DNA of 57,697 bases, taken from Bacteroidota bacterium. GTDB taxonomy: Bacteria > Bacteroidota > Bacteroidia > Cytophagales > Amoebophilaceae. A program made the translations under genes and the position numbers. Each line of letters begins with the position of its first letter. The first letter of the stretch is position 1. Below are positions 25,241 through 57,580 of this stretch, in pieces. The stretch spans positions 1 through 57,697 of the forward strand of contig JAAGZN010000600.1 of NCBI GenBank assembly GCA_024206165.1. Reading direction: 5' to 3'. The notes under the pieces are model-generated. The model did not search any database and was not told the DNA's origin. It saw only the letters and a list, made by a program, of their open reading frames with translations.

Positions 25241-25259
25241 TGGTTTATTCCTCCTATTA

Positions 25260-26821: not shown

Positions 26822-27814
26822 TTATTTTAAATCTGTATTCTCTGCCGCAGCTAGTTTATCTTTATTCTTTTTATACCAAGGAATGATGATTTTGCGAATA
26901 ATAAAACTCATTTTTTCTTTATTTTTGTTTACATCTACAAAATTATGATTAACTCCTGGCAGTAGATGAAATTCAAAATTATCATAGTCTTTAACCTGAT
27001 TTTTTAAATATTCAAAACTTTCGATAGGAACACTATAATCTTTATCCCCAATAATATAAAGTACAGGCACTTTTAACTTTTTTATATATGGTATTGGGTC
27101 ATATTCTAAAGCAGAAGCCCATATTTTATAAGGTCTTCCTAACCAAAATAAGTCTTCTCTAGGATTATCTTTTATATCTTGAAATTTATCCTGCAAATCT
27201 TGCTTATCAAAAATACCAGTATACTCAAATGCTCCCTGTCCTTTTTCTTGGGCCATTTCTTTTTCTAAAAATATCTCAAATTCTTTTTTCTGTGGTAAGC
27301 CTCCTGCTCCTAATACAATTAATCCACTTAGATTTGGGATATTTGAAGCTATTTTAGGCGCTATTACTCCACCATCACTATCTGCCATAACAGCTACTTC
27401 AGTTAGCTTATTCTTATAAATATCTTCTTTAACATGGTTTAAAACGAAATTTATATCATTAATTCTTCTCTCAAATGAATTTGTCTTGTAAAACAATTTT
27501 TTATCATCATAACCATATTTCTCTATAAATAAGACATCATATCCTAAATATACAGCAGGAGCACCTCTATATCCATATTCTTTAACAGAAAATCTACCTG
27601 AGCCTTGTATATATAATAAAAGTTTATTAGAAGGTTCTGTGTTTTTTTCTTCGGTACAAATATAAAAGGATATGGATTTTCCTTTATCATTTTTAACACT
27701 ATAGTCTTTAATAGACATATCTATTCTTGTACAAGCAACTAAAGATAGCCCAAAACAAGCTAAAATTAGCCATTTAAGACATTTTACTGAAATTGATATA
27801 TTAATTTTGTTCAT
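26822..27814 (-). CDS. Alpha/beta hydrolase lipoprotein
   Basis: 330 aa; signal plus lipobox LILACFGLSLVAC; hydrolase-like VAVMADSDGG nucleophile elbow; late IIGDKDYSVP and NH motifs. Confidence 0.55.
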   Translation of the reverse strand: MNKINISISVKCLKWLILACFGLSLVACTRIDMSIKDYSVKNDKGKSISFYICTEEKNTEPSNKLLLYIQGSGRFSVKEYGYRGAPAVYLGYDVLFIEKYGYDDKKLFYKTNSFERRINDINFVLNHVKEDIYKNKLTEVAVMADSDGGVIAPKIASNIPNLSGLIVLGAGGLPQKKEFEIFLEKEMAQEKGQGAFEYTGIFDKQDLQDKFQDIKDNPREDLFWLGRPYKIWASALEYDPIPYIKKLKVPVLYIIGDKDYSVPIESFEYLKNQVKDYDNFEFHLLPGVNHNFVDVNKNKEKMSFIIRKIIIPWYKKNKDKLAAAENTDLK

Positions 27815-29153
27815 ATTTTATCTCTTTAGAATGAAATTCATAATAAATATTTTTTCTCCATTTTTTCCCTAATTCTGTCAATTCAATTTTTTGATCATTA
27901 ATTTTTACTAAAGAATGTTGTTTCAGTTTCGTAAAAATCTCATGGAAAATATCCATAGGGTCTTTTTTAAATTTATTATAAAAATCTATACGATTTAATT
28001 TCGCAGAATAGAAATTATGTATAATATATCTTTCCATTAAATTTTTATAACTAGCTTTAGGAGATAGGCTGTCAGCTTCAAAGTATAAACCATTTTTTAC
28101 TTGATTTTTATATATTTCTGAATCTTTTGTAATGGTAAACTGATATCCATTAATAAAACTATATGCACCTGCTCCAAATCCCAATATTTCACTGCTGCTA
28201 TTACAGCTTAATTGGACATATTTTTGCCTATGATTGGGTTGAGTAAAAATGCCTCTAACTTGTTCGGAATAATTATATTCTTTTAATTTTTCAACAGTCC
28301 AAAGATACCATTCATATTCGATATCAAGATCATGTTGCTGTTTTAAGTGTCCATTTTTAATCAAGTCCTCTGCTTTACTTCCTGGAAATACAACATAATT
28401 TCCTACACTTATACTTTCTGGTTTAACCTTCAGTATTATTTCTATATCTTTCTTCCATTGTTCAAATGTTTGTCCTGGAACATTAAAAAGTAAATCTACA
28501 TTAACAGCTTCAAAGCCTACAGAAAGAGCATTATTAAGAGATTCTAATGCTGTTTTTCGCCTGTGAGCTGTATTAAGTGCTTCTAAAGTTATGTTCTGTC
28601 CACTTTGATATCCTATAGATAATCTAGTGACTCCACTCTTTTTTATGTTTTCTAAATAGTTTAAAGAAAAATCTAGGGGATTCCCTTCTAAATTAATCTC
28701 TATATCTAATGTCATGTTAAATGAATTTTTTAATACATTTATTAATCTCTCTACTTGATTTACTGTTAATACAGAAGCAGTTCCTCCACCTATATAAATC
28801 GCTCCACATTTAGATGAAGTAACCCGTATAGTATCTGCATATGCTTTTATCTGGCTAATTAGAACATTCAGATAATCATTTAAAAAAGAATTTTTATCTG
28901 CATTATCCGGAAGGAAACCTCTAAAACAGCAACAAGAATTACATTTAGTTCTACAATATGGAATTGAAACATAAATTGTAAATAAATCCTCTTTCAAGTA
29001 AGCTTTATCTAAATCTAATTTATCTTTTAAACAAAATGTTTCATGCCCTAAAGAAGATTTCATTGGAGGATAAATAAAAAAATTTATTTCATCAGGAACT
29101 GAAACATATGGAAAATCTAGAGTCCTGCTTGTTTTTTCCCTTTTTCCATTCAT
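27801..29153 (-). CDS. HemN-like (coproporphyrinogen III oxidase family) radical SAM enzyme
   Basis: 450 aa; CRTKCNSC (Cx3Cx2C), IYIGGGTASVL (GGGTPS-like), plus the C-terminal HemN_C-like region. Confidence 0.8.
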   Translation of the reverse strand: MNGKREKTSRTLDFPYVSVPDEINFFIYPPMKSSLGHETFCLKDKLDLDKAYLKEDLFTIYVSIPYCRTKCNSCCCFRGFLPDNADKNSFLNDYLNVLISQIKAYADTIRVTSSKCGAIYIGGGTASVLTVNQVERLINVLKNSFNMTLDIEINLEGNPLDFSLNYLENIKKSGVTRLSIGYQSGQNITLEALNTAHRRKTALESLNNALSVGFEAVNVDLLFNVPGQTFEQWKKDIEIILKVKPESISVGNYVVFPGSKAEDLIKNGHLKQQHDLDIEYEWYLWTVEKLKEYNYSEQVRGIFTQPNHRQKYVQLSCNSSSEILGFGAGAYSFINGYQFTITKDSEIYKNQVKNGLYFEADSLSPKASYKNLMERYIIHNFYSAKLNRIDFYNKFKKDPMDIFHEIFTKLKQHSLVKINDQKIELTELGKKWRKNIYYEFHSKEIKYEQN

Positions 29154-29172
29154 TGTTTTATTTCTCCTTCTT

Positions 29173-29853
29173 TTAAGTAATCTGAATATCTAATGAATAT
29201 AATAATGCCATAGCTTCAGGTAATGTGAATTTGGCTTGTTTTACTTTATTTATAGTTATATCAATAGTATAATTTTTAGCATTTCTAAAATTTGTTTTTG
29301 TGAGATTAGTATTTAAAAACAAACTATCAACTAAATTTGTTTCTTTAAAATTTGCTTCTGTAAGATCTGCTTCCCTGAAATCAACATCCTTAGCAAGACA
29401 CCCTATTATCTCAATTTCTTTTAACTTCATGGCTAAAAATGTGGAATAACTTATATTACACTCAAAAAAATTTATGGGACGATAAAGTTGAGTTCTTTCC
29501 CAAGTCGCTTCTGTCCAGTTAATTCCAACAAGTTTAGAATTTTTAAAACTTGTATTTGAATAAGCACTGTTTTTTATCTTAACAGAACTTAAATTTGAAT
29601 TTTCAAAGTTACAATCATAAAATTTACAATTTTGTAAAAATGATTCACTAAAATCACACTTTATAAAATTACAATCATAAAACTCTTTTGAAATTATTTC
29701 ATCTTTAGTTAAAATGATGTCTTCAAAAACTTTTTCGCTATATTCTATATCATTAAAATTGTTCATATTGTTTATCTCCTGATATTTTTTAAGATAATAA
29801 TTTTTTAAAATAGTCCTTTTGCATTTTTTCTTTACGTATAGTTGCATCATCAA
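29173..29853 (-). CDS. Pentapeptide-repeat protein
   Basis: Consecutive A(D/N)LxX-type repeats: FYDCNFIKCDFSESFLQNCKFYDCNFENSNLSSVKIKNSAY...FREADLTEANFKETNLVDSLFLNTNLTKTNFRNAK. The likely start is ATG 29766 (MNNFNDIEY) after CAGGAGATAAACAAT, which removes the overlap with the upstream gene. Confidence 0.85.
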   Translation of the reverse strand: MMMQLYVKKKCKRTILKNYYLKKYQEINNMNNFNDIEYSEKVFEDIILTKDEIISKEFYDCNFIKCDFSESFLQNCKFYDCNFENSNLSSVKIKNSAYSNTSFKNSKLVGINWTEATWERTQLYRPINFFECNISYSTFLAMKLKEIEIIGCLAKDVDFREADLTEANFKETNLVDSLFLNTNLTKTNFRNAKNYTIDITINKVKQAKFTLPEAMALLYSLDIQIT

Positions 29854-31303
29854 GAACCACTGAAGTCTTAGAAGTTTTTGTTATGAGTTCACTATGTTTG
29901 TATCCTAGATTCCGTAACCTAGAATAAACTGCCCAATCAGCAAGAGGTTTCTTTTTTAAAAAAGACTCTTGTATTTTTCTTGTAAGTTTTTCTGCATATT
30001 CTTTATTCATAAATTCATTTTGCCACTGAGGACCATCTGTCGATATTCCTGTCCCTAATTGTGGACCTGTAATTGTATATCCATATTTTTCGGGATTTGC
30101 TGCTATTTTAGAGATAGGAGCATTTGGATTATCAGTTGTTGGCCTAATATTTAAAGGACTGAAAACAGCATCATCTAAAGGACAATCCTCTTTTTGTAAC
30201 CATTCAACTGTACTCCAAATAGATTCTTCTGATTCTCCTGGCAATCCTACAATAAATGATCCAGTAGTAATTATTTCACCTTTCCATGTTTCTTTAAGAT
30301 AATAAAGAGTTTCTTTTATTTTATCTGGATGTATTCCTTTCCCTATTTCTTTTGCAGCAGCAGGATTTAAAGTTTCTATTCCTATCAAAATAGCCTTAAG
30401 ACCTGACTCAATAAGTAATTCTCTTTGCTCCGGATGTGAATATATAACATCAACTCGTCCATATCCTGTCCATTCTAATTTAAAAGGTAATTGTTGAAAA
30501 AGATTATGCAATCTTATTACTTTTTCATGACTATCATTATAGGTGTCATCGCAAAACATATATCCTGTAGTTCCAAAAAGCTCATAATTACGTATCAACT
30601 CTTCCTTTAATATTTCTGTAGACTTAGTATATTCTCCTGGATTTTTATGTAAAGGATTAGCACAAAATGCACACCTAAAAATACATCCTCTATCTATTTC
30701 TATAGGTAAATGTTCATTTGGGAATAAATAATCTTGTTTTTGCCACATTATTTTTGATTTATAGTAATCATCATAACATGGATAATCTTTATTAGAAATA
30801 ATACTTCCTATTTGTCCAGGAGTAGTAACAAGTTCATTTCCAAATTTTAAATGATTCGCCAATGCGATAACACTTCTATCAGCTAACCCCCAAAACCAAT
30901 AATCTACTCCTTTTAATGTTGTGACATTTGCTTTTCCTCCACCTATTACAATTTTTATTTGGGGATTCCTTTTTTTAAAAATATTAAACATTTCCTGAAC
31001 AAAATCTTCATCTTGTGGCAAATGTCCTGAATATCGATTTTCTTTAGTTCTATCAAGCCTAGAAATTGATGATTTTTTGGTCTTTTTTATTAAAAGAGTT
31101 GTAGCAAATCCAACAAACAATGTGTTGTTATCAATAAATTTATAGGTAATATCCTCAATATCTTTCAAAGTAATATCTGCAAAAAATTCTATAACTTGAG
31201 TGCTATATCCTGCCTTTCGAAGCTCAGTAGCAATTCTATATGCCCCTGCATATCTTCCAAATCCTATTACACCATTAACATCCGTAAATATTATTACATT
31301 CAT
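29789..31303 (-). CDS. B12-binding-domain radical SAM enzyme
   Basis: 504 aa; N-terminal Rossmann-like cobalamin-binding region (MNVIIFTDVNG...AGAYRIATELRKAGY), then IEIDRGCIFRCAFCANP (Cx3Cx2C). Confidence 0.8.
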   Translation of the reverse strand: MNVIIFTDVNGVIGFGRYAGAYRIATELRKAGYSTQVIEFFADITLKDIEDITYKFIDNNTLFVGFATTLLIKKTKKSSISRLDRTKENRYSGHLPQDEDFVQEMFNIFKKRNPQIKIVIGGGKANVTTLKGVDYWFWGLADRSVIALANHLKFGNELVTTPGQIGSIISNKDYPCYDDYYKSKIMWQKQDYLFPNEHLPIEIDRGCIFRCAFCANPLHKNPGEYTKSTEILKEELIRNYELFGTTGYMFCDDTYNDSHEKVIRLHNLFQQLPFKLEWTGYGRVDVIYSHPEQRELLIESGLKAILIGIETLNPAAAKEIGKGIHPDKIKETLYYLKETWKGEIITTGSFIVGLPGESEESIWSTVEWLQKEDCPLDDAVFSPLNIRPTTDNPNAPISKIAANPEKYGYTITGPQLGTGISTDGPQWQNEFMNKEYAEKLTRKIQESFLKKKPLADWAVYSRLRNLGYKHSELITKTSKTSVVLDDATIRKEKMQKDYFKKLLS

Positions 31304-32736
31304 TTTTTATCTCCAAAAATATTTCTAAAACCTTGTATCATTTCAAAAGGTAATATATAATCTCTACAAGATAAATTTGCTCCTTCATAGCCTAACTTTG
31401 TCAACTTTTTATAATGCTTAATAGTATTATCAATATTTCCCTGCCCTAAAGTTAGGTCTATATCTTTAAAAACTGCTGAAAAAACACTAGAAAAAATACA
31501 TCCCATTAAATCATAATCCGATGTACGATAATCTACCATCATGGCAAAAGGATTTTTTTTATCTATAGATGATGGCATATATCTTAATTCATGAATAGGT
31601 TTATTTAATTTTATCATGCCACCTTCTGTAAATAATATATCTCTTTTTTTTATAAATCGTTGAATAGCTTTCACATAATCAAAACAATGTGGAGCTGAAT
31701 CATCAACAATTATTGTTCCCGGTTTAAGCATATCAACATTAAGTACATTTTCAATATTTGTAGCTCCTATTATAAAAGTTGTTTTATAAAAATCGATAGG
31801 AACTTGTGCTTTTGAAATAACTATCTTCACTTCTCCTTTAAACCCAAAACCATCAATTATTTCCTTTTTAATTTGTTCCAATAATTCATATTTTCCAAAC
31901 ACATCACACAATGTAATAGTTAATGGATGAGGAAGCACTTTTAACATTAATCTTAAAGAAGTTAATCCTATTGATCCTAGTCCTAATAAGCCTACTTTTT
32001 CTTGTTCAATAAATCTATTACTCATGCACAAAATTTTTTTAATTGCAAAAATTACTGAACTAGCTGTTGTAGCATGCCCCGTTGAAATTTTTGGGAAATC
32101 TTTTTTTTCAACAACTCTTTTATTTACGTCATTGCCATAATCAGTTGCAGAGGGGAGTAATCCAGTAAGGGAAACTACTTTAGCATCTAAACTTTTTGCA
32201 ATCTCGATTCCAGCCATAATATTATCTAATAAATTTTCTGAATTATTATAAATTTCAAAAGCAAATATCGGTAAAGTTATATGACAAATACGTCCTAATT
32301 CAGTTGTAAAAATTCGTCTAATTTGTGGAAGATTCTTGAACCATTTTTGGATTATTTCATTTTTAGTTAAACCCATATCATGAGGCAATGTATTAGGTAA
32401 ATATCCTAATGCAACTGCATCTACCTTTTGAATTTTTCTAGTATTATATAATGTTAATAAAGAACGTTTTTCGAATTTCAAAAATGAAAAAGAAGATAAC
32501 TGATTAGAAATTTTTGTAATTTTGTTTATTGTTTCTAAACTTTTTTCTGGATTAGAAATGTAATCCTCTTTAAAATAATCACTGATTGCAGCAATACTTT
32601 GATAAGACAATAAAAATTTCACGGAGATATTATGTTCTAACAAAACCGACATTTTAGATACTAACTGGATCGCTTGAAGAGAATGCCCACCTAAATCAAA
32701 AAAATTATCATTAATACTTATATTGTGAACTCCCAA
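31300..32736 (-). CDS. Carrier-protein (T) domain fused to an acyl-ACP-reductase-like NAD(P) Rossmann domain
   Basis: N-terminus (KLLKIWEQVL)GVHNISINDNFFDLGGHSLQAIQL is a PCP core. The C-terminal ~390 aa have SLTGLLPSAT, STGHATTAS, VGLLGLGSIGLT (GxGxxG), IIVDDSAPH and LMGCIFSSVF. These parallel cyanobacterial acyl-ACP reductase (ALGGFTSI, TTGNTHTA, VVGATGDIG, LIDGGYP, MFACFAEAM with the catalytic Cys). No ATG: the frame opens just after a TAA at 32766-32764 and the track start is TTG. Confidence 0.55.
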   Translation of the reverse strand: MGVHNISINDNFFDLGGHSLQAIQLVSKMSVLLEHNISVKFLLSYQSIAAISDYFKEDYISNPEKSLETINKITKISNQLSSFSFLKFEKRSLLTLYNTRKIQKVDAVALGYLPNTLPHDMGLTKNEIIQKWFKNLPQIRRIFTTELGRICHITLPIFAFEIYNNSENLLDNIMAGIEIAKSLDAKVVSLTGLLPSATDYGNDVNKRVVEKKDFPKISTGHATTASSVIFAIKKILCMSNRFIEQEKVGLLGLGSIGLTSLRLMLKVLPHPLTITLCDVFGKYELLEQIKKEIIDGFGFKGEVKIVISKAQVPIDFYKTTFIIGATNIENVLNVDMLKPGTIIVDDSAPHCFDYVKAIQRFIKKRDILFTEGGMIKLNKPIHELRYMPSSIDKKNPFAMMVDYRTSDYDLMGCIFSSVFSAVFKDIDLTLGQGNIDNTIKHYKKLTKLGYEGANLSCRDYILPFEMIQGFRNIFGDKK

Positions 32737-32887
32737 AACTTGTTCCCATATTTTTAATAATTTTTATTATCATGATACTTTTTAATGGATTTTATATTTT
32801 CTCCATATAGCAATATATTTATTGAGAAAATAAAGCCTAAAAATATTATTAACATTAATTTATTCAATTATTTTATCCTTTAATTTG

Positions 32888-33091
32888 CTATTTTATATTT
32901 GATTTTATTCTCTTTTTTCGTAAATCATAAATAACTAAATTATTTCCATCATAAAAACTTGAAACATATCTACCATTTGGCGATATGCTTGGAGAAAACC
33001 CCTCTATCCCTAATTTTGTTAATTTCCCTTTTTCCAATAAATATACATATCTGGTTAACTCATTAACTCTATGCGAACTAAATAACTTATT
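32888..33091 (-). pseudogene. Fragment of a beta-propeller paralogue, in frame directly after the stop of 33092..34132
   Basis: After TAA the frame continues NKLFSSHRVNELTRYVYLLEKGKLTKLGIEGFSPSISPNGRYVSSFYDGNNLVIYDLRKKRIKSNIK then TAG. It aligns to residues ~38-105 of the upstream protein (SKRSSDRNMYIYLLENGKLKNLKIESNMAKISPDGELVAAF...LCLYSLKENKIIKK). There is no start codon. Confidence 0.6.
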
Positions 33092-34132
33092 TTATTTTTC
33101 ATAAAATTCCTTAAGCCCTTCATACCACCAATCAGGACAACTATCATCACTATATTTGATTATTTTTTTCCCATTACTCTCTACGTCATATGGAACAGGA
33201 AATGTTACCATAATCTCTTTATCCCTTTCCCCAGCACGTCCAACTACTAAACTAAAAACTTGGTACGGATTATTAACTGCACTATAAATATACTTCCCTC
33301 TTGGACACAATCTTTCTGAACTATAAAATTTCTGAACTATATCTTCCACAACTTCATATTCTAACGTATCCACATTTAATTTATACAAACTTCCAAAGGC
33401 ATTATTTATTTGCTTCCAATCTTTATTATTTGTATGAATTAAAATATGTTTATTATCTGGATACCAACCAAGTGGAACAGCTATATCCCAAAGTTTTTTT
33501 ATTTTTTTCCCTTTAATATTCATAAGATATAATTTTGTCATATTTTCTTTAGAAACATCTTTATATTTTCCACTTTCTCCAATACAAGCAAGCATTCTTT
33601 TATTATTTGGAGAAATACAAATATCCTCGATATCATACCAAAATCCAACATCTCTAAATTTTTTCAAAATTTTTTCTTTTCCATTTCGAATATTTATACG
33701 CATTAAATATTTATTATATAAATTTCGACCATCCTCATTTTTATTGCCAGTCTTTTCATATGATCCATAAATTATATATTTATTATTTTTCCCCCACTCC
33801 AAGTTATTTACTATACCTATTTTTATAGAATATTTTTTTATAATTTTATTTTCTTTTAAACTATATAAACAAAGTTCATCATTTTCCTTATTATCACTTA
33901 CGAAAGCTGCTACAAGTTCACCATCCGGAGATATTTTTGCCATATTACTTTCTATTTTCAAATTTTTTAATTTCCCATTTTCTAATAAATATATATACAT
34001 ATTCCTATCAGAACTTCTTTTTGAAGTAAAAATCATTTTACCAGGTAAATCCTCCACAATTTTGATTTCTTCTGCAACAGTAAAACTTATTAATAATAAA
34101 TAACAAAAAAACAACAATAAACTTTTTTTCAT
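33092..34132 (-). CDS. Secreted TolB-like (PD40) beta-propeller protein
   Basis: 346 aa; signal peptide MKKSLLLFFCYLLLISFTVA; repeated ...ISPDG/ISPNN... blades (KISPDGELVA, CISPNNKRMLA). Confidence 0.6.
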   Translation of the reverse strand: MKKSLLLFFCYLLLISFTVAEEIKIVEDLPGKMIFTSKRSSDRNMYIYLLENGKLKNLKIESNMAKISPDGELVAAFVSDNKENDELCLYSLKENKIIKKYSIKIGIVNNLEWGKNNKYIIYGSYEKTGNKNEDGRNLYNKYLMRINIRNGKEKILKKFRDVGFWYDIEDICISPNNKRMLACIGESGKYKDVSKENMTKLYLMNIKGKKIKKLWDIAVPLGWYPDNKHILIHTNNKDWKQINNAFGSLYKLNVDTLEYEVVEDIVQKFYSSERLCPRGKYIYSAVNNPYQVFSLVVGRAGERDKEIMVTFPVPYDVESNGKKIIKYSDDSCPDWWYEGLKEFYEK

Positions 34133-34145
34133 ATTTAGTCTCCCA

Positions 34146-36032: not shown

Positions 36033-36067
36033 ATCACTTTCATTTACTTTATCAAAAACTCCTCTCT

Positions 36068-41388: not shown

Positions 41389-41391
41389 ATA

Positions 41392-43253: not shown

Positions 43254-43278
43254 AAAATTATCCTCCTCAATTTTTATT

Positions 43279-45292: not shown

Positions 45293-45321
45293 ATTAAAGT
45301 CCTTTTATATTTTCATCAAAA

Positions 45322-46098: not shown

Positions 46099-46144
46099 TC
46101 CCTATAAATCCTCTAAATTAATTAAATATATTAAAAAACAGTTC

Positions 46145-46714
46145 TTATAATTTTATTTCCATTGCTTCTAATCCCTTAACAAATGCTTTAATATTCAACT
46201 CATCTTTTGATTTTTGTACTATTGTTTTCTCTATTACATCTTGAGAAATAGGAAATAACTTTTTAGCCATAATAAACCCTAACATAACAATGTTTGTTTT
46301 ACGAATATCTCCCAAGTTAGAAGCAATATGGCTTGCATTTAAATAGCAAGTTTTAATATTTAAATTTTTTAAAAACAGTTCTATTTCAGTATTTAATCTT
46401 TCTTCTGTATTTAAAAAAATATATCCGCCGTTCTTTATAAAAGATAAATTTCTTATTAACTCATCTGAATTTAAAGCTATTATTATATCCGCCGTTCTAT
46501 GCTGTATCAAAGGAGCTTCCTCATCTCCTAACTTAAAATGAGAAACAACAGCTCCTCCCCTTTGACTCATCCCATGAATTTCTGAAACCATAACTGGATA
46601 ACCAATTTCAGTAAATGCTTCTGCAAATATCCTACTCAAAAATAATATTCCTTGTCCTCCTAACCCTGTAATAATAATTCTATATATCTTTAAATTCGAT
46701 TGATACTCATTCAT
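46145..46714 (-). CDS. iorB: Indolepyruvate/2-oxoacid:ferredoxin oxidoreductase, beta (IorB-like) subunit
   Basis: 189 aa; IIITGLGGQGILFLSRIF...VMVSEIHGMSQRGG is typical of the POR gamma / IorB family. 4-nt overlap with iorA. Confidence 0.8.
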   Translation of the reverse strand: MNEYQSNLKIYRIIITGLGGQGILFLSRIFAEAFTEIGYPVMVSEIHGMSQRGGAVVSHFKLGDEEAPLIQHRTADIIIALNSDELIRNLSFIKNGGYIFLNTEERLNTEIELFLKNLNIKTCYLNASHIASNLGDIRKTNIVMLGFIMAKKLFPISQDVIEKTIVQKSKDELNIKAFVKGLEAMEIKL

Positions 46715-48582: not shown

Positions 48583-48606
48583 TTTTTACCCATTTTTTAT
48601 AAAAAT

Positions 48607-49308
48607 TTATTTTATATCAGCAATTATTTCATCCAAATCTCTAAGAATAACTTTTTCTGGAAAACTATTGCTGCTATAATTACAAACAGCTATTTTATAC
48701 CCATCTATCATTTTATATTGTTTAAAAAATCGATTAGTATCTATATTCTCGAGTAATAATCTTATATTGTTTTCTCTATTGAATCTTACTTCCATTGTAT
48801 TAGGATAAATAGATAATCCTCTTCCATTAGCTTTTATATAACTTTCCTTTATAGTCCATATATCAAAAAATAAATCTTTTTTTTCCACAGAAGTATCAAA
48901 ATTATTAAACATGTCAACCTCATTAGGATGAAATACTTGATGTATTATATTTAAATCTACTTTTTTAACTTCTTCTATATCAATCCCTACTATATTTCTT
49001 TTATCTATCACACAAATAACCCATTCCCCTGAATGAGAAATATTAAAATAAAAATTATTGTCTTTTAGATACGGTTTACCATGTTTATTAAGTCTAAATT
49101 CAATATCAAAATTCCGTATATTTAATTTTCTACAAATAATACTTCTTATCAAAACATCTGATATTAATCCTCTTTGAAAATCCTCCCATCTTTTGAACCT
49201 TTTAAGCTTTTCCTTTTTTTCAGGTGCAATATATTGAAACAAAAAATCAAATCTATTTTTTACAAAAACAAATTTACTTAATAATTTTGTAGCATATATC
49301 TCTGGCAT
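48607..49308 (-). CDS. Sfp-type 4'-phosphopantetheinyl transferase
   Basis: 233 aa; GKPYL...FNISHSGEWVICV, GIDIEEV, WTIKESYIKANGRGLS. Confidence 0.85.
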   Translation of the reverse strand: MPEIYATKLLSKFVFVKNRFDFLFQYIAPEKKEKLKRFKRWEDFQRGLISDVLIRSIICRKLNIRNFDIEFRLNKHGKPYLKDNNFYFNISHSGEWVICVIDKRNIVGIDIEEVKKVDLNIIHQVFHPNEVDMFNNFDTSVEKKDLFFDIWTIKESYIKANGRGLSIYPNTMEVRFNRENNIRLLLENIDTNRFFKQYKMIDGYKIAVCNYSSNSFPEKVILRDLDEIIADIK

Positions 49309-49346
49309 ACTTTCTCTCTTTCACAAGTACTTTTATTAAAATATGT

Positions 49347-51278
49347 TTATTTAAAATCCTCAATTTCTAAGGTCATTGCAAAAATATGAAAATTCAAATT
49401 TTCCCCAAAAGACAATTGTTTTATTTTCTTATTAACTGGTAACTTTACAGTTTGTAACCACAATTTTGGTTTCCAATTAGAAGAATCTAGCTTTTCCCAA
49501 TCTTCTTTTTTATATATTTTAGAATTTAAACTTAAAATTTCTTTATGTTTTTGATAATTCACAAAAGGAGCCTCCGCAAAAAAATTCCTATTAATCTCTT
49601 GCCCTTCATCAGGAGAGTGTAAATGAGAAAATAAAAATGCCAATTTTTCATTATAAATAGGATAAAGCAACCAATTACTAAGACCTAAATGAACTACTTT
49701 TGTAGAATTGTCATAAAATTTTATATATAGTTTTTCATTCCATGAATTCCCTTTTTCGCCTTCTGTGGCACCTATAACATAAAGAGCTTTATAATAACTT
49801 TTAGGTAATACAAAAATTTGTTCTTGTAAAACTAAATTATTTTTAAATCCTGCTTCCTTATGTGGGGAAAAAAATGGAATTTTATCTATTTTAATAACCG
49901 AATTAGATTCAGGGAATTCTTCAGCAGGATAAGTAGCCCCATGCCCATCAAAAGAACCATCACATTTTAAATTATCATATGATATGCCATCATTATTAAA
50001 ATATTCACTAAGATTTATAGGATAAAATTTTTCTATCATATCGTTTTTTTCTACCATTATAACTCCACTTTGCTTCTTATTTTTTCGAAAATCCTCAATA
50101 ACAGTAGTAAAATTAGATAGTATTCTTTTGTCCCTTAATAATACAAATTGTGGTATCCAAACAAACTCTTCTGCAAGTAAATAGGAATTGGGACATTTTA
50201 TTTGAGCAGGTATTATCACCTTTATTTTTTCACATATCTTGCTCCAGAAAGGATCATATTTAAGATATTTTTTTTCACTAAAATATGGAAACTGATCTAA
50301 TGGTAATTCTTCATATCCTCCCCAACATGGGATTCCATTTTCATTTAAATATTTGATAAACTTACTTTTATCTTTATTATTAAATTCTTCTTTTTTATAT
50401 CTGAACATGAAAAAATGACATCCATGTTGCGTTAAATTATTAGGGACCTTAATTGAAACAATACCTGGAATATTTAAACATTGTTCAAATAAAAATCTAT
50501 ATTTATTTTCTCTTAACAAATTATATTCTTTAAACTTATAAAGCTGTGCTAAAAGCACTGCTCCTTGAAACTCACTAAGTCTATTATTCCCACTTAAATA
50601 TTTAAACTCTACATCTTCTCTTGATTCATCGTAGTTATAGTCTAAATATTTAGCTATTTTGATGGCTAATTTGTTATCTTCTGTTACGATAGCGCCTCCT
50701 TCTCCAGAAGTAATATTTTTGCTATTTTGAAAGCTAAAACATCCAACATTACCAAATGTTCCAACATGTTTTTCATTATAAAAAGTTCCTAATGCTTGTG
50801 CACAATCTTCAATAACAACAATTTTATTTTCTTTCGCCCAATTAACAATCGTATCTATTTCACAACATTGTCCTCCAAAATGAACGACTATTATTGCTTT
50901 AACTTTATTGCGGAATTGTGAATATACTGTTTTAATTGATTTTAAATCCATACATGCTGTATCAGAATTTACATCTGCAAAAACAGGAATTCCTCCAACC
51001 TTAAGTACAGAGAGAGCAGTTCCAATAAAAGTTATATTTGGAACAATAACATAATCTAAAAAACCTATATCTAAACTTTTTAAAGCTATTTCTAAAGCAA
51101 CTGTTCCACTAGAACAGCACACTGCATGTTTTATGTTTAATAAAACTGAAAAATGATGCTGAAATTTCTTAACGAATTCACCTTCTCTAGACCACCATCT
51201 TCTATTAAATAGTACTTTTTTCAAGTTATATTCTTCTGTTCCTACATTTATTGGCCATTCAATAATATTTTTACTCAT
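49347..51278 (-). CDS. DegT/DnrJ/EryC1/StrS-family PLP aminotransferase fused to a ~240-aa unknown C-terminal domain
   Basis: 643 aa; aminotransferase core to about residue 400 with FSFQNSKNITSGEGGAIVT (PLP lysine). Residues ~405-643 have no recognisable motif. Confidence 0.75.
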   Translation of the reverse strand: MSKNIIEWPINVGTEEYNLKKVLFNRRWWSREGEFVKKFQHHFSVLLNIKHAVCCSSGTVALEIALKSLDIGFLDYVIVPNITFIGTALSVLKVGGIPVFADVNSDTACMDLKSIKTVYSQFRNKVKAIIVVHFGGQCCEIDTIVNWAKENKIVVIEDCAQALGTFYNEKHVGTFGNVGCFSFQNSKNITSGEGGAIVTEDNKLAIKIAKYLDYNYDESREDVEFKYLSGNNRLSEFQGAVLLAQLYKFKEYNLLRENKYRFLFEQCLNIPGIVSIKVPNNLTQHGCHFFMFRYKKEEFNNKDKSKFIKYLNENGIPCWGGYEELPLDQFPYFSEKKYLKYDPFWSKICEKIKVIIPAQIKCPNSYLLAEEFVWIPQFVLLRDKRILSNFTTVIEDFRKNKKQSGVIMVEKNDMIEKFYPINLSEYFNNDGISYDNLKCDGSFDGHGATYPAEEFPESNSVIKIDKIPFFSPHKEAGFKNNLVLQEQIFVLPKSYYKALYVIGATEGEKGNSWNEKLYIKFYDNSTKVVHLGLSNWLLYPIYNEKLAFLFSHLHSPDEGQEINRNFFAEAPFVNYQKHKEILSLNSKIYKKEDWEKLDSSNWKPKLWLQTVKLPVNKKIKQLSFGENLNFHIFAMTLEIEDFK

Positions 51279-51293
51279 ATTTTTCTCCCAATT

Positions 51294-52331
51294 TTAATTT
51301 CTATGAGAACATCTATAGCAAATAGCTTCATATCGTTTATCTAATCCTAATAAATTATATTTTGACAGATCTAAAAAATCCTCAAAACAATCATCTTTTA
51401 TATTTCCTATGACTGTATCTAAAAAATCAGGACATATTAATATATTACCTGTATCATCAACAACTAAAGCTTCTTCAATCCTATCACAAGGTGTATTTAT
51501 AATATCCCATGGGTCTGGTCTTAATGTGGGAAGTAATATATCGGGTCTTTCATGAAAAACTCTTAAATTTTCTTCATTTATTCTAAAATTCTCCTTTCTA
51601 TTCCTTATAAAATATCCATGTTCATCTATAATTTGACAATAAATTTCTGATAATAATTTATAATCAAACATATTTGATTTATTCTTCTGATAGGCTTCCC
51701 ATGAACAAATGTCTTTTTTATATAGCTTCAGTGTTTTTTCTCTAAATTTTTCACCTAATTTTGGATCAACCAACAATAAAAAATTAATACAAATTGTATC
51801 AACATCCCAACTTTTAATTTCTCTACAAAATTCTGGGAGGGTTAAATAATTTTCAGGTTGTACCACAAAATTAATAACGACCTCTGTCTTAGGCTTTTTA
51901 TGTCTAATTAACTCAATATACTTTTTCAAAGACTTTTCAACTTTATTAAATAACCCTGGGAAACCTCTTATTTCATCATGTAAATCCCCTAATCCATCCA
52001 AAGATACAATTAATGTTTCAATAGGCCTATTGGATAAAAAATCTATATATTCATCTAATAATAACCCATTAGTATTAATAGCAATTTTAGTTTCCTTTTC
52101 TAAAAAGAACTCTATTATTTCAACCAAATTTGGATGTAAAAGAGGTTCTCCTCCCCATAAATAAGCATATAAATCTTTGGGAATGTTAGAAAAAAACGAT
52201 TTCATATGCTTTATATCCATAAAATGTTTTTTTTCTAATCCTTCTCCTCTTATTCTTTGCCCACACATCTTGCAATTCAGATTACATACATTTGTTAATT
52301 TTAAATTTAAAAGGTTTATGTTTCTTTTCAT
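51294..52331 (-). CDS. Radical SAM enzyme with a Cys-rich (SPASM/twitch-like) C-terminus
   Basis: 345 aa; LKLTNVCNLNCKMCGQ (Cx3Cx2C), WGGEPLLHP; C-terminal cysteines ...PCDRIEE...ICPDF...AICYRCSHRN. Confidence 0.8.
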   Translation of the reverse strand: MKRNINLLNLKLTNVCNLNCKMCGQRIRGEGLEKKHFMDIKHMKSFFSNIPKDLYAYLWGGEPLLHPNLVEIIEFFLEKETKIAINTNGLLLDEYIDFLSNRPIETLIVSLDGLGDLHDEIRGFPGLFNKVEKSLKKYIELIRHKKPKTEVVINFVVQPENYLTLPEFCREIKSWDVDTICINFLLLVDPKLGEKFREKTLKLYKKDICSWEAYQKNKSNMFDYKLLSEIYCQIIDEHGYFIRNRKENFRINEENLRVFHERPDILLPTLRPDPWDIINTPCDRIEEALVVDDTGNILICPDFLDTVIGNIKDDCFEDFLDLSKYNLLGLDKRYEAICYRCSHRN

Positions 52332-52340
52332 AAAATTATC

Positions 52341-53672
52341 CTACTTAACTTTAGAAATAAAATATTTGAATTTACCACTTGTTGAATCATTAGAAATAAT
52401 ATCTTTTACAATTTCTATATCTATATCCACTTTATAACCAAAAATATTTAAAAAATAGTCTTCTAAAAATAATTTAGCTTTTTCTACCTTATTTTGTGAT
52501 ATATTTTCTGCTCTTATTATATAAATAAATTTATCTATACTTTCTTGAATAACTTGATATTGCCCAAAATCTAATATATTTTCTCGCTTCATAAAATAAA
52601 CCGAATCTGTAATAATCCAATTTTCACAAAACATTCCATCCTTCCCCTTAATTAAATCATTTACTCTATATTGTTTTAAATTTATAGCTGGGCTTTTTAA
52701 CCCACATTGACAGTCTTTTTGAAGCCAATTTGCACAATCTCCTGTTTTGTATCTAATTAAAGGCATATTATCATGTGTTAAGGTAGTTGCTACTACCTCA
52801 TAACTTCCTTTTGAGGTTTTTATAAGTTCTACGAATACATTCCTATCAAAAATATGCATGTTCCCCATTTCACAAGTAGCTCCCATAAATTGTATTTCAT
52901 TAGAAGCATATATACTTCTAGGAACTATCCCAAATGCTTGTTCTATATTATCTTTTTGCCAATCAAATAAATGCTCACTATGACACTCTATATAACGAAT
53001 ATCTAGATTTAGCTTATTAGCATATTTAACAATATATTCTCCAAAATATGCTAAAATAGAAGAGCCACCAACCATCCACTTTATTTTATTACTCACAATA
53101 AATTTTAATAATTTATCAAAAACTTCCATATTATAGTTACAAAGATAGTGTACATATCCATATTTATCAATTTGTAAAAAAGATTCTTCATTTCCAAAAG
53201 CTGTTTTGGATATAAATGGATTTACTCCCCATATCCAAATATATGGATGCTCAAAAATATCAGGCCAAATTTTTTTCCTATACATATTAAGCAGAAAAAA
53301 ACTTTTATTAATATCTTTAAAATTTTTAAAAATAGATAAAGGCATTCCTGTTGATCCACTTGTGCGATAAAGCATTAACTTATATTTTCTTGTATATTTC
53401 ATTTTTTCTTTAGGGTCTTTAATATTTTCATATATAGATAAATCAAAGCCTTCATTAAAAATTGTTTCTGATACAAACTCTGATATATTCATTTGACAAT
53501 TTTTTTTTGTCGTAAATGGAAACTTTTTAAAATCTTCATAAGTTTTAATTTTATTTATATCTATAGAATTTTTTTCATAAAGCTTTTTATAATAAGGAAC
53601 TTTCATAGATTCCTGTAAAATTTTTGCTATAAGTTCACGATTTTTATTAAAAATATTCTTTTCAATTTTCAT
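52341..53672 (-). CDS. Phenylacetate-CoA ligase (PaaK) / CapK-like adenylate-forming enzyme
   Basis: 443 aa; YRTSGSTGMPLSIF core motif and overall PaaK-like length and layout. Confidence 0.65.
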   Translation of the reverse strand: MKIEKNIFNKNRELIAKILQESMKVPYYKKLYEKNSIDINKIKTYEDFKKFPFTTKKNCQMNISEFVSETIFNEGFDLSIYENIKDPKEKMKYTRKYKLMLYRTSGSTGMPLSIFKNFKDINKSFFLLNMYRKKIWPDIFEHPYIWIWGVNPFISKTAFGNEESFLQIDKYGYVHYLCNYNMEVFDKLLKFIVSNKIKWMVGGSSILAYFGEYIVKYANKLNLDIRYIECHSEHLFDWQKDNIEQAFGIVPRSIYASNEIQFMGATCEMGNMHIFDRNVFVELIKTSKGSYEVVATTLTHDNMPLIRYKTGDCANWLQKDCQCGLKSPAINLKQYRVNDLIKGKDGMFCENWIITDSVYFMKRENILDFGQYQVIQESIDKFIYIIRAENISQNKVEKAKLFLEDYFLNIFGYKVDIDIEIVKDIISNDSTSGKFKYFISKVK

Positions 53673-54393
53673 AAGATATTCCTGAATTTAGATTAAAAAC
53701 CTGACTTGTAACGTTTTTGCACAAATCAGACGAAAAAAATAACAGAAAGTTCAACAAATCATATAAATACTTACTGTCTCTTTGCCTATTATCATCTATT
53801 TTTTTGTTTAAATCTGTAGGTATGCAACCTGGACAGATAGAATTAACTGTTATTTCAAATTCTTCTAGTTCTTTTGCTAAAGACTTTGTAAATCCTATAA
53901 TACCTGCTTTAGAAGCTGCATAATTTGTTTGTCCCTTACTACCCGTTATCCCTCTTAATGAAGTTATATTAATTATTTTTCCATATCGATTTTTTATCAT
54001 TGCTTTAGAAAAAAATCGACTACATAAATAAATTCCTGTAAGATTTACATCTATAACATCTTTCCATTGTTTTAATGTCATCATTGGCAACAAATTATCC
54101 CTTGCTATACCTGAATTATTTATTAATACATCAACTTTATTATTATACCTCTCCATCACTGTTCTATATAAATTTTTAACTTCTTCCTCTTTAGATACAT
54201 CTGCTTTTATAATTATGCATTTTTTATTAAATTTATTTATCTCATCAAACAGATTATATGCCTCTTCTTTTGAATTATTATAAGTTATTACTACTTGCGA
54301 TTCTTCCTTGGCAAAACAGTATGCTATATGTCTTCCTATACCTTTTGAACTGCCTGTAATTACTACAACTTTATTCCGTAAGTTAATGTTCAT
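53662..54393 (-). CDS. Short-chain dehydrogenase/reductase (3-oxoacyl-ACP reductase-like)
   Basis: 243 aa; VVVITGSSKGIGRHIA (TGxxxGxG), NNSG, S...YAASKAG (catalytic YxxxK). Confidence 0.85.
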   Translation of the reverse strand: MNINLRNKVVVITGSSKGIGRHIAYCFAKEESQVVITYNNSKEEAYNLFDEINKFNKKCIIIKADVSKEEEVKNLYRTVMERYNNKVDVLINNSGIARDNLLPMMTLKQWKDVIDVNLTGIYLCSRFFSKAMIKNRYGKIINITSLRGITGSKGQTNYAASKAGIIGFTKSLAKELEEFEITVNSICPGCIPTDLNKKIDDNRQRDSKYLYDLLNFLLFFSSDLCKNVTSQVFNLNSGISYEN

Positions 54394-54646
54394 TTTTATT
54401 TTTTAATTCCTTTTTTACATAATTTTGCAAAACTGAATATTTAGTTAATGTCGGACTGCCTAAATACTCATCATCAAATTCAATACCAAACTCCTTTTCT
54501 ATATCTACCACTAATTGAATTAACTGAACTGAATCATATCCAAAATTATCTATTAAATCAGATGCTCCTATAATATCCTCTATTCTTACTTTAATACGTG
54601 CATTCTTTACTATTATATCTTTCAATTTTTCATCTAACATAAACAT
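54383..54646 (-). CDS. Acyl carrier protein
   Basis: 87 aa; LIDNFGYDSVQLIQLVVDIEKEFGIEF has the DSx phosphopantetheine attachment serine. Confidence 0.8.
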   Translation of the reverse strand: MFMLDEKLKDIIVKNARIKVRIEDIIGASDLIDNFGYDSVQLIQLVVDIEKEFGIEFDDEYLGSPTLTKYSVLQNYVKKELKNKNEH

Positions 54647-56118
54647 TGGCTCCTTATAATTTTCCCATTCTTGGTGTAAGAAAGTGTCCTAACAAAATAT
54701 ATTTGGCCAGGGACCTTATAGCTAGATAAATTTGTTAAACAAAAATCTATAATTTCTTGTGTATCAATATCGTCTGATTTTTTTACAACATTAGCCACTG
54801 GAATTTCGCCCAACAAATCATTTGATATCCCATAGACATACGCATCTTGAATTAAGGGATGTTGTTTTAATATTTCTTCTACTTCTTCAGGATATATATT
54901 CATTCCACCTGAAATAATAATATTCTTTTGTCTTCCTTTAAGATAAATATATCCTTCATTATCATACAATCCCAAATCACCAGTATGAAGCCACCCAGCT
55001 TTATCAAATTCATTTTTATCTTTTTTTTGTTTGTAATATCCTTGCATAATATTCTTCCCTTTTATTACAATCTCTCCTATCTCTCCCACATTCACATCTT
55101 TTTCATCTTTATCAACTATCCGCAATTTTATATCTCCTATAGGTTTGCCTATTGAATCTGTTTTTTGATGTATATCTTTATCTTCTAATGTAGTTACTCG
55201 TGGAGATGCTTCTGTTAATCCATATGTTTTAAAAAATTTAATCTTATTAAACATAGTCATCAATTTTTTCATATTGTCACCAGATATATGAGCTCCGCCT
55301 ATACTTATCCATTTTAAAGAAGATATATTATTGCTGATCTTTTTATTTTTATAATCTAACAATGTAATTGCTTGTGAAGGCACTGTCATAAAATTAGATA
55401 TATTTTCTTTTTCTACTATTTTGAAAAATAATTTTGGGAAAAACATAGTTTTAATAATAATTATTGTTGCTCCAACATATAAATGGCTTAAAAACTGTGC
55501 TGTGTTACAATAAGAAAAACTCATTGGTAAAGTTATCAAACTTCTATCATTTTTATTAATTTTCAAAGACTTTACATTTGCTTTTACATTAAATAATAAA
55601 TTACTATGACTTAGCATTACATATTTAGGTGAATCAATCGTTCCTGAAGTGGGCAATATAATAGCTGTATCTTTAAAAATATTCTTCTCTATAATCTTAT
55701 CATTATTTTTTGAACTAATAACATTTATGTGATCTATATTAGAATTTACACTGATTATTGTTACATTATTATTTTTCAAAATATCTTTTAATTGTTGCAG
55801 ATAAAAATCATTTGTTATAACCACTTTAATATCGCAATAATTAATTATTGCGAGTATTTCATACTTCTTACTTTGTACATTTATAGGCACTATAACTTTA
55901 TTTAAAAAACATATTACAAAATAAAAAACCCCATATTGTATTGAATTAGGAACAAAAATAGCAATATTCTGAGTATCTTCGACACTTTTAGAAATTGTAT
56001 CCTTAATCTTATTTACAGATAAAAATAACTGTTTATAAGTAATTGTTTTTTCTCCATATTGTATTGCTAATTTATTATAGTTAGCATACTTAATTAATAT
56101 ATCTTTAATTGTTTTCAT
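54634..56118 (-). CDS. Acyl-AMP/CoA ligase (ANL superfamily adenylating enzyme)
   Basis: 494 aa; LPTSGTIDSPKYVMLSH, YGLTEASP, GWLHTGDLGLYDNEGYIYLKGRQKNIIISGGMNIYPEEVE, YTKNGKIIR. The ATG lies 2 nt after the stop of the phage-derived ORF, with no SD. Confidence 0.85.
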   Translation of the reverse strand: MKTIKDILIKYANYNKLAIQYGEKTITYKQLFLSVNKIKDTISKSVEDTQNIAIFVPNSIQYGVFYFVICFLNKVIVPINVQSKKYEILAIINYCDIKVVITNDFYLQQLKDILKNNNVTIISVNSNIDHINVISSKNNDKIIEKNIFKDTAIILPTSGTIDSPKYVMLSHSNLLFNVKANVKSLKINKNDRSLITLPMSFSYCNTAQFLSHLYVGATIIIIKTMFFPKLFFKIVEKENISNFMTVPSQAITLLDYKNKKISNNISSLKWISIGGAHISGDNMKKLMTMFNKIKFFKTYGLTEASPRVTTLEDKDIHQKTDSIGKPIGDIKLRIVDKDEKDVNVGEIGEIVIKGKNIMQGYYKQKKDKNEFDKAGWLHTGDLGLYDNEGYIYLKGRQKNIIISGGMNIYPEEVEEILKQHPLIQDAYVYGISNDLLGEIPVANVVKKSDDIDTQEIIDFCLTNLSSYKVPGQIYFVRTLSYTKNGKIIRSQCLC

Positions 56119-57452: not shown

Positions 57453-57470
57453 ATTTGTTATTTCCCCTAT

Positions 57471-57550: not shown

Positions 57551-57580
57551 TAAAATTTTTAAAAACTAAATTGTGTATAA

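Follow-up and report, generated by a model that had tools for sequence, protein, structure and literature searches.

Contig JAAGZN010000600.1 of a Bacteroidota bacterium (57,697 bp; this complete contig is called the window below) carries at 26822–56118 a biosynthetic gene cluster (BGC) of about 29 kb that combines nonribosomal peptide synthetase (NRPS), fatty-acyl and radical S-adenosylmethionine (SAM) genes, and, as a preliminary description had stated, the cluster is contiguous with genuine phage genes on both sides. The reading that we hold to be moderately probable is that of an orphan hybrid thiotemplate BGC of bacterial origin, which illegitimate recombination has joined either to an E217/Pa193-like phage, now defective, or to a phage-derived island. 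At the join, the phage scaffold/protease gene would have been severed after codon 313 and the cluster's BtrH-type gene near codon 205, so that the two pieces now read as a single in-frame chimeric open reading frame (ORF); the cement, capsid, connector, tail and lysis genes that normally follow the scaffold gene would have been lost, and the remaining phage genes would form a mosaic around the cluster. The earlier proposal of cargo embedded between the modules of a phage able to carry it is not supported, given the chimeric border, where two truncated genes are fused, a head module that is broken in at least two places, the absence of virion genes from the contig, and the phage-free chromosomal settings of the conserved cluster part in other bacteria.

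The chimeric gene at the right border

The preliminary description placed the right border 2 nt after a phage scaffold-derived ORF. The phage origin of that ORF (56121–57452, minus strand, 443 aa) stands for its larger part, but the position of the border does not, since the ORF is a chimera of phage and cluster gene pieces. The true border lies inside it, at about 56,495–56,514, and is a scar of recombination at which a phage gene and a cluster gene have each lost a part. Only residues 2–313 match the nearest relative of the DUF2213 part, protein P0122 (67% identity), and the similarity to L001, a 43.7-kb phage contig (47% identity), ends at 56514; the normal C-terminal ~100 residues of DUF2213 are absent. 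In tblastn, residues ~320–404 of the chimera (56495–56241) are 47% identical to residues 210–294 of a 337-aa protein of the metagenomic locus L007 and 38% identical to the corresponding part of a 592-aa protein of L008. The 337-aa protein carries the Pfam domains BtrH_N and DUF4872 and is a member of the same gene cassette that adjoins the remnant in the window, where no other BtrH_N-like sequence was found. Across the break, between 56,514 and 56,495, the GC content falls from 35.4% to 23.2%. The homology switch, the GC drop and the lack of another BtrH_N argue for one recombination or deletion event that removed the 3' end of the phage gene and the 5' two-thirds of the cluster gene. It has been reported that the papain-like domain carries the catalytic Cys in BtrH/CtaG-type enzymes (PMC12865890); this BtrH_N domain with its Cys is absent here, and the remnant does not qualify as a BtrH-type acyltransferase.

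The abrupt GC change, together with the status of the contig as a metagenomic singleton, is also what favours an assembly chimera, in which the assembler joined a cluster from a bacterial chromosome to the genome of a phage living in the same low-GC community. No second copy of the contig was found in the collections, its own proteins occur on one contig only, its end-gene proteins have no exact record, and a 33-mer from its right end is absent from metagenome and viral contigs. Such an artefact is nevertheless considered very unlikely: two independent false joins would be required, at ~56.5 kb and ~26.8 kb, the junction regions have no repeat in common, the third-position GC (GC3) and codon regime is identical across the parts, and the native frames of both gene fragments are kept at the junction.

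Phage genes retained and missing

The late genes of L001 and L002 run in the order TerS, TerL, portal, MuF, DUF2213, cement, PF09950 major capsid protein (MCP), connectors, tail terminator, sheath, tube, chaperone, tape measure and baseplate, and the succession TerS-TerL-portal-MuF-DUF2213-cement-MCP-tail is common to L001, L002 and L003. In L003, the closest relative, DUF2213 is followed by a gene that does not belong to the cluster and to which nothing in the window corresponds. The window keeps TerS, TerL and portal by PHROGs (44–47% identity to L001), and its full-length TerL, portal and MuF are 42–47% identical to those of L001. In reading direction, the TerS–MuF block comes ~47 kb after the DUF2213 stump. 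The gene behind MuF is RusA, and in front of the stump stand two strong terminator-like hairpins instead of MuF.

When all late proteins of L001 were searched against the window by tblastn, only TerL, portal, MuF and the DUF2213 stump were found. Neither Pfam, PHROG nor tblastn searches found a cement, capsid, connector, tail or lysis gene in the 57.7-kb contig, the Pfam and PHROG scans covering those ORFs of at least 80 aa that are treated as genes. There was no match to PF09950 or another capsid family; the best tblastn hit of the L001 MCP (E=0.09) is the ORF 17748–18596, which was rejected as a hidden capsid gene, Pfam and PHROGs being silent on it. The check for virion genes and attachment (att) sites could be made within the contig only, and it yielded no capsid, tail or lysis gene and no tRNA or att repeat, so that within these limits the capsid, an intact scaffold/protease, the tail and the lysis genes of an intact prophage are all lacking.

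Several better-known kinds of element were compared with this inventory. Phage satellites are ~5–20 kb long, carry their own integrase and helper-exploitation genes, and lack most virion genes; the contig, which measures at least 57.7 kb and has, in full, the early and the packaging module of a phage of an ordinary type (~44 kb), does not fit PICI, cf-PICI or P4-like satellites. Nor does it fit a phage-plasmid, as the only ParB-like match is a nuclease-type domain beside a DNA methyltransferase, and virion body genes are absent.

A viable temperate phage or phage-plasmid bearing the cluster as accessory cargo (a giant "moron"), with its virion genes past the contig ends, would account for the genuine, intact packaging and early genes that lie on one side in the same strand, for the uniform gene orientation and the GC3 common to cluster and phage genes, and for the SoFic defence genes, which are typical of prophages. 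The Xer-like recombinase also resembles those of the Bacillus thuringiensis phages vB_BtS_BMBtp14 and vB_BtS_B83, which we take to be plasmid-like prophages; the phage matches listed for this enzyme, these two (~33%) included, are all 33–35% identical. Yet, with its scaffold/protease gene truncated and joined to a cluster gene that is likewise truncated, a viable phage would need a second, intact copy; behind MuF come RusA and metabolic genes rather than head genes, two terminators stand before the stump, and the contig is 14 kb above the ~44-kb related phage genomes without holding virion body genes. We regard viable-phage cargo as the least probable of all the explanations, and by a wide measure improbable.

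A further candidate is a defective element of the lambda dgal kind, a natural BGC-transducing phage derivative that would be packaged by the capsids and tails of a related phage and would move the 29-kb cluster between hosts. Its own replication genes, recombinase, TerS, TerL, portal, MuF and early genes are intact, the junction resembles the illegitimate joint of an aberrant excision, and related phages of ~42–46 kb are common in metagenomes. At 57.7 kb or more, and still incomplete, the contig reaches ~130% or more of related phage genomes and would not fit a headful; the separation of the DUF2213 stump from MuF calls for more than one rearrangement, and no helper is known. Helper-dependent mobility is rated as quite unlikely.

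The separation of the stump from the other head genes can also be taken to mean that a native cluster in an ordinary chromosomal locus lies between two unrelated prophage remnants that merely inserted as neighbours; the left end runs into a secreted nuclease gene, and the left-end genes from RusA to the XRE regulator could be those of a second element. An in-frame gene that is half phage and half cluster is, however, a direct deletion or recombination joint and not adjacency, and MuF (44%) and the DUF2213 stump (47%) are equally diverged from the same reference phage, as for one ancestral phage. This explanation is unlikely, though it is given slightly more credit than the other alternatives.

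Evidence for a bacterial origin of the acyl/radical SAM/DegT cassette

The only part of the cluster that recurs elsewhere, with 47–63% identity, is the run of acyl-AMP/CoA ligase, acyl carrier protein (ACP), ketoreductase (KR), PaaK-like ligase, radical SAM/SPASM enzyme and DegT aminotransferase at its right end. L007, a 53-kb metagenomic contig with leuS and BatD/VWA genes, matches the window genes of 49347–56118 with 45–57% identity and encodes, in addition to the radical SAM/SPASM, DegT and BtrH-type proteins, two AziU2-like proteins, the ligase, an 87-aa ACP, the KR and the PaaK-like ligase. The C-terminal half of the DegT fusion of the window matches the AziU2/Azi28-like structures PDB 8gs1/7wuw at just ~1e-7, and it is 45–50% identical to the separate 231-aa and 237-aa proteins of L007 and to the C-terminal half of the BtrH-type protein of L008; the fusion itself is kept in protein P0242. 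Smaller versions of the cassette in L006, L008 and L090 adjoin glycosidase-like genes, and in a termite-gut Endomicrobium metagenome-assembled genome the core cassette adjoins ribosomal-protein genes, an ABC/OEP exporter and a glycosyltransferase. A GTDB scan with an alignment of the radical SAM enzyme returned 80 loci, among which the Endomicrobium one is the single true orthologue, the others being ~25% identical SPASM enzymes.

None of these contexts is phage-like; they are chromosomal, belong to unrelated bacteria, and often lie beside glycosidase or glycosyltransferase genes and exporters. By this sequence context the cassette is taken to be of bacterial origin, and the combination of DegT, AziU2-like, radical SAM and PaaK-like proteins is uncharacterised wherever it occurs. 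It had been said at the outset that the phage-cargo view would fall if the flanking phage genes were dead remnants in an ordinary chromosomal locus and the cluster were present at the same site in phage-free relatives. Much of the first part was found; as to the second, it is the conserved cassette, in other bacteria, that was seen phage-free.

Content and novelty of the assembly line

The 23 ORFs of 26822–56118 are all on the minus strand, with overlaps or gaps of at most 46 nt apart from one gap of 355 nt (32737–33091), which bears out the tight co-directional packing described before. Nearly all of the earlier domain calls were reproduced by Pfam, NCBIfam and PDB searches, and the same searches, like the earlier reading, found no exporter or pathway regulator in the cluster. 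A thiotemplate system is present: two adenylation (A) domains, three NRPS thiolation (T) domains and one ACP, one condensation (C) domain with HHxxxD, and an Sfp-type 4'-phosphopantetheinyl transferase. SbnA and SbnB are adjacent with a 23-nt overlap, and both score above the cut-offs of their equivalog models; apart from these two, NCBIfam gave no pathway-specific equivalog in the cluster.

The enzyme combination, which had seemed unfamiliar, matches no characterised pathway that was found. Among 5.8 billion clustered proteins there was no NRPS homologue above ~46% identity, and the best matches are mainly cyanobacterial; NRPS matches in GenBank phage records are generic, at 34% identity or less, and several of these records are evidently contaminant or bacterial contigs. 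Megablast of both window halves against GenBank phages and PLSDB plasmids gave no match, and neither TerL nor the NRPS found a relative in scans of IMG/VR.

Composition, gene layout and contig ends

All 60 of the 60 ORFs treated as genes are on the minus strand. Read from high to low coordinates, two hairpins are followed by the DUF2213 ORF, the cluster, the Fic gene and the phage early region, then by the tyrosine recombinase, the ParB-like gene with the DNA methyltransferase, TerS, TerL, portal, MuF and RusA, and finally by several regulatory and metabolic genes, the last ORF running off the left end. The flanks are thus as first described, with the scaffold/protease ORF on the right and Fic and then phage early genes on the left. 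The GC content is ~28% for the whole contig, 27.8% for the cluster, 29.3% for the early region and 32% for the packaging module, so that the higher AT content claimed for the cluster is marginal (27.8% vs 29–32% GC); GC3 is indistinguishable across the cluster and the phage parts (~0.15–0.2), and one codon regime is common to both. This common GC3 argues for long co-residence in one low-GC host, which was probably anaerobic in view of the three radical SAM enzymes and IorAB. A sigma-70 promoter scan was uninformative, its counts equalling those of shuffled controls at 28% GC.

The contig is a fragment of a larger replicon. The nuclease ORF that runs off its left end indicates that it was cut inside a gene, the right end has stops in all frames, and no terminal repeat or overlap between the ends was found. 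A simple closed circle of 57.7 kb, in which MuF and the DUF2213 stump would be neighbours across the ends, was dropped on these three points; a larger circle is possible. Just upstream of the stump, at 57455–57697 (minus strand), a pair of long-stem hairpins stands in tandem; both terminate in a U-run and follow a conserved AGCGGCU..CAGCCCC box (fold z-score -9.0; no Rfam family). The pair resembles either a double terminator or some small structured RNA. The tRNA and Rfam scans of the window found nothing, and no tRNA or att repeat was found around the tyrosine recombinase; with no tRNA in the window there is no tRNA-type att site to propose.

Likely internal damage to the cluster

Most of 26822–56118 can be kept as cluster, but 32737–36032 is non-biosynthetic. 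Between the C-A-T and T-R genes there is a ~3.3-kb stretch of extreme GC skew (-0.49), in which a fragment-like 628-aa ORF, a 346-aa beta-propeller-like ORF and a pseudogene fragment share a YLLE(N/K)GK motif or repeat. The homologues of the 628-aa ORF amount to 17 clusters in 1.8 billion representatives and are mostly giant proteins, and none of the insert ORFs (32906–36032) matched a family in the libraries searched. This segment, 32906–36032, is a non-biosynthetic foreign insert.

Beside it, the T-R gene is likely clipped at its 5' end, judging by where its reading frame can start. The first usable start is a TTG at 32736, inside helix 1 of the carrier domain; nine further in-frame T-domain codons (KLLKIWEQV) lie upstream of it, directly behind three stop codons, the T homology extends to 32760–32763, and the PP-binding match begins at profile position 16. 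In the only ORF with a canonical start, the T domain is without ~9–12 N-terminal residues. The reductase domain (R*) is full length with its Cys conserved. Its solved, NRPS-derived relatives (PDB 9e4s/9e4x) bear the name of an "amino acid adenylation domain protein", and the gene may accordingly have lost an A or C-A portion at its upstream side. The T-R reductase also resembles the thioester-reductase part of PigE (PMC8341465); nothing useful was found in the literature on PDB 9E4S or on "AAR-like" NRPS domains. The remaining genes of the cluster are as long as their orthologues. In view of the lost catalytic domain of the BtrH-type enzyme and the clipped T-R gene, we put at well under one half the probability that the full product is made by the cluster in its present form, which may be partly or wholly disabled.

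Proposed pathway

We infer all steps from family membership. SbnA and SbnB would make L-2,3-diaminopropionate (Dap) from O-phosphoserine and glutamate. The A-T loading module probably loads a carboxylate without an alpha-amino group, since its A domain has no Asp235, and this may be a keto acid or an aryl acid supplied through IorAB. Chemistry of the aryl-pyruvate or aryl-acetate kind is suggested by IorAB together with the PaaK-like ligase, and possibly by the chorismate mutase of the left end. The dock-C-A-T module would then add Dap or Ser, given its Ser/Dap-like code and its relatives beside SbnAB-type genes. In L004, a PALP/OCD pair 52–54% identical to SbnA/SbnB adjoins a 41%-identical relative of this module, which supports Dap as the substrate. 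The AAR/PigE-type reductase of the T-R protein would release the thioester as an aldehyde.

In the cassette, the ligase, ACP and KR would build an acyl-ACP, the radical SAM/SPASM and DegT enzymes would make an amine, and a BtrH/AziU2-type transacylase would move the acyl group to this amine, by analogy with butirosin BtrS/BtrN/BtrI/BtrH. The SAM methyltransferase, the B12-type and the HemN-like radical SAM enzymes would tailor the product. The pentapeptide-repeat protein is a likely self-protection factor, hinting at a product directed at DNA or at gyrase/topoisomerase.

Points that weigh against the proposed origin

Several points speak against a bacterial BGC welded to a defective phage. The retained TerS, TerL, portal, MuF, recombinase and early genes are full length and without frameshifts, which one would not expect of a remnant long dead and which would allow for an element of recent formation or one that can still be mobilised. 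Transcription runs one way throughout the 57.7 kb, like in a phage or plasmid and unlike in a typical chromosome. The contig is a fragment and covers no sequence past either end. No close relative of the organism or of the phage was found in the searched collections, so that the ancestral arrangement and the direction of the event cannot be reconstructed. As for the damage, the truncation of the T-R gene depends on the lack of a canonical start, and a rare start is possible; the substrates and products are putative, being assigned at family level.

Annotated features and side observations

The coordinates of the features are collected in Table 1.

Table 1. Features annotated in the window and recurrent cassette loci elsewhere.
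Feature	Coordinates	Strand	Basis and remarks
Phage DUF2213 (Pa193_gp24-type) head scaffold/protease, N-terminal 313 codons	56514–57452	-	PF09979 6e-45; phrog_530 8e-79
BtrH-type (BtrH_N + DUF4872) transacylase remnant, in frame	56121–56513	-	DUF4872-side C-terminal portion only
ANL-superfamily acyl-AMP/CoA ligase, 494 aa	54634–56118	-	AMP-binding 2e-62; fatty-acid/MenE-type NCBIfam below cut-offs; 49% identity to L007 orthologue
Stand-alone ACP, 87 aa	54383–54646	-	PP-binding; 48% identity to L007 ACP
FabG-like ketoreductase (SDR)	53662–54393	-	adh_short 7e-59, KR; TIGR01830 228 bits, below cut-off
PaaK-like adenylating ligase, 443 aa	52341–53672	-	NCBIfam DVU_1553/FlxY/PaaK; PDB phenylacetate-CoA ligases 8e-13; no Pfam match; 48% identity to L007 and L009 orthologues
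Radical SAM/SPASM, 345 aa	51294–52331	-	Pfam; best PDB BlsE cytosylglucuronate decarboxylase 4e-12; 51–61% identity to L006–L009 orthologues
DegT PLP aminotransferase (aa 1–~400) fused to AziU2/Azi28-like domain (aa ~400–643), 643 aa	49347–51278	-	DegT 8.5e-78
Sfp-type 4'-phosphopantetheinyl transferase	48607–49308	-	ACPS + AASDHPPT_N
IorA; IorB (arylpyruvate:ferredoxin oxidoreductase)	46711–48582; 46145–46714	-	TIGR03336 632.9 bits (cut-off 650.9); POR family 1e-32
258-aa protein, no family	45322–46098	-	Pfam, NCBIfam, PHROG and PDB searches without match
SbnA; SbnB	44312–45292; 43279–44334	-	TIGR03945 420.8 bits (cut-off 349.95); TIGR03944 382.2 bits (cut-off 326.9)
Class I SAM methyltransferase	42438–43253	-	Methyltransf_31 5e-31
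M19 (renal-type) dipeptidase	41392–42468	-	Peptidase_M19 6.6e-90
NRPS loading module A-T	39502–41388	-	Pfam; A domain without Asp235, 10-residue code SSRDLAMGIK
NRPS TubC-dock-C-A-T	36068–39505	-	Pfam; A code DVWHISLVDK (Ser/Dap-like); HHIIAD in C domain; best homologues 41–46% identical
628-aa fragment-like ORF	34146–36032	-	Matches internal/C-terminal parts of 1000–3000-aa proteins
346-aa signal-peptide beta-propeller-like ORF	33092–34132	-	No family match
64-codon pseudogene fragment of a paralogue of the 346-aa ORF	32906–33085	-	39% identity, E=2.5e-8
T + AAR/PigE-type thioester reductase (T-R)	31300–32763	-	PDB 9e4s/9e4x E=1e-105, ~50% identity; PigE N-terminal match
B12-type (class B) radical SAM, 504 aa	29789–31303	-	Radical_SAM; NCBIfam PhpK/HpnJ/B12-rSAM below cut-offs
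Pentapeptide-repeat protein (Qnr/MfpA-like), candidate immunity	29173–29853	-	Pentapeptide_4 1.7e-20; Qnr families below cut-off
HemN-like (class C) radical SAM	27801–29153	-	ChuW/HutW 194 bits, HemW, HemN; PDB HemN 8e-25, NocN methyltransferase 2.5e-18
Alpha/beta-hydrolase lipoprotein	26822–27814	-	Lipobox LVAC; BD-FAE, DLH; EstD-like
SoFic-type Fic (anti-phage defence family), first non-cluster gene on left	25736–26803	-	Fic 8e-21; phrog_5978; PADLOC SoFic 5.6e-56
Phage early/replication-recombination region	11769–25574	-	LPD29, Gp157, SpoVG, Sak4-like ATPase, second SoFic, YopX, GIY-YIG, small Zn-ribbon ORFs
XerC/D-like tyrosine recombinase, 300 aa	11769–12671	-	~470-nt non-coding gaps on each side; between early and packaging genes
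Packaging/head-start module: ParB-like + DNA methyltransferase, TerS, TerL, portal, MuF/gp7	5503–11284	-	PHROGs; all full length
Non-virion genes after MuF	1–5545	-	RusA, Com-like Zn ribbon, ATPase-wHTH, methyltransferase-like, GNAT, chorismate mutase, VOC/glyoxalase, methyltransferase, XRE HTH (Pfam)
Signal-peptide EndoG-like nuclease ORF, DSGH motif	368–1	-	PDB EndoG family, weak, E=0.002; runs off left end
Recurrent cassette loci	L007:8220–16825; L089:10001–14445; L008:793–6534; L006:309–11212		DegT, AziU2-like, radical SAM/SPASM, PaaK-like ligase with or without BtrH-type, ligase, ACP, KR

Some smaller observations were made along the window. The C-terminus of the 258-aa protein holds a candidate GNAT-like R-G-K-G motif, read by eye. 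In the early region, the Fic protein of 15753–16913 (PADLOC SoFic 5.5e-107) is a paralogue of the Fic protein that borders the cluster, with 31% identity, and two apparent gaps of ~470–500 nt hold paralogous ~55-aa CxxC...CxxC zinc-ribbon ORFs (17540–17748 and 20730–20920; 83% DNA identity). Toward the left end, after MuF and RusA, a second small cassette at 385–3416 encodes an XRE regulator, a SAM methyltransferase, a VOC/glyoxalase protein (bleomycin-resistance fold family), a type II chorismate mutase, a GNAT and a methyltransferase-like protein, which could be precursor-supply or resistance genes tied to the cluster, or unrelated cargo. The neighbouring 3548–4783 encodes a P-loop ATPase of 411 aa that has a winged helix at its C-terminus (weak CasR/HTH_24) and no clear family; it may initiate replication or may regulate a second element.

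Significance and comparison with known systems

A working phage as carrier would place the cluster among the very few large NRPS pathways known to travel in virions and would alter the view of how secondary metabolism spreads. Under the reading preferred here, it is a concrete case of illegitimate recombination welding a big biosynthetic locus to phage DNA, and "viral" contigs with BGCs need their virion modules checked. Both the recurrent cassette and the orphan Dap-using NRPS line with its AAR-type reductase merit biochemical study.

Butirosin is made with ACP-dependent acylation by BtrH/BtrI, the aminotransferase BtrS and the radical SAM dehydrogenase BtrN. The cluster resembles butirosin-type N-acylation and the ligases of the CtaG/AziU2-U3 fold in its ACP, adenylating ligase, DegT, SPASM radical SAM, BtrH_N/DUF4872 and AziU2-like components; unlike butirosin, no aminocyclitol or sugar genes lie in the window, the AziU2 similarity is weak, and BtrH_N is deleted. 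A fold relationship of the AziU2-like domain to BtrH/CtaG-type ligases has been reported (PMC12865890).

With the staphyloferrin B pathway the cluster shares SbnA and SbnB, adjacent and above their equivalog cut-offs, and a Ser/Dap-like A domain is present; the window has no NIS synthetase or siderophore transport gene, and its downstream assembly line is unrelated. The SbnA/SbnB-type route to Dap also serves zwittermicin, dapdiamide and other Dap-containing NRPS products. A short line ending in a thioester reductase, and a low-GC, probably anaerobic host, recall the reductively released dipeptide-aldehyde NRPSs of anaerobic gut bacteria, and among the PigE/TamH-type thioester reductases the R* domain is related to the N-terminal reductase of PigE; unlike in the former, the reductase is of the AAR/PigE type and not the SDR-type R domain, it sits in a separate, probably 5'-clipped T-R gene, and the loading module lacks Asp235.

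On the phage side, the TerS-TerL-portal-MuF order is that of E217/Pa193-like myoviruses and of Aeromonas phage vB_AsaM-56, and 38–47% identity to these and to ~43–44-kb metagenomic relatives is found in TerL, portal, MuF and DUF2213 residues 1–313. Unlike the E217/Pa193-like phages, the window has no cement, PF09950 capsid, sheath, tube, tape measure, baseplate or lysis genes, and its DUF2213 gene is truncated and ~47 kb from MuF. The BGCs recorded in a survey of prophages were nearly all of the bacteriocin/RiPP kind, and NRPS-like ones appeared as partial fragments only (bioRxiv 10.1101/2020.10.01.322628); the present case shares with them the linkage of a BGC to temperate-phage genes, but it is a 29-kb NRPS hybrid and its phage is not intact. 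A formal parallel is lambda dgal/dbio, in which adjacent bacterial genes likewise take the place of one end of the late region by way of an illegitimate joint, and the packaging and early genes survive; unlike lambda dgal/dbio, the window has no att-type second junction next to the recombinase, its size is above the expected headful, and there are signs of more than one rearrangement.

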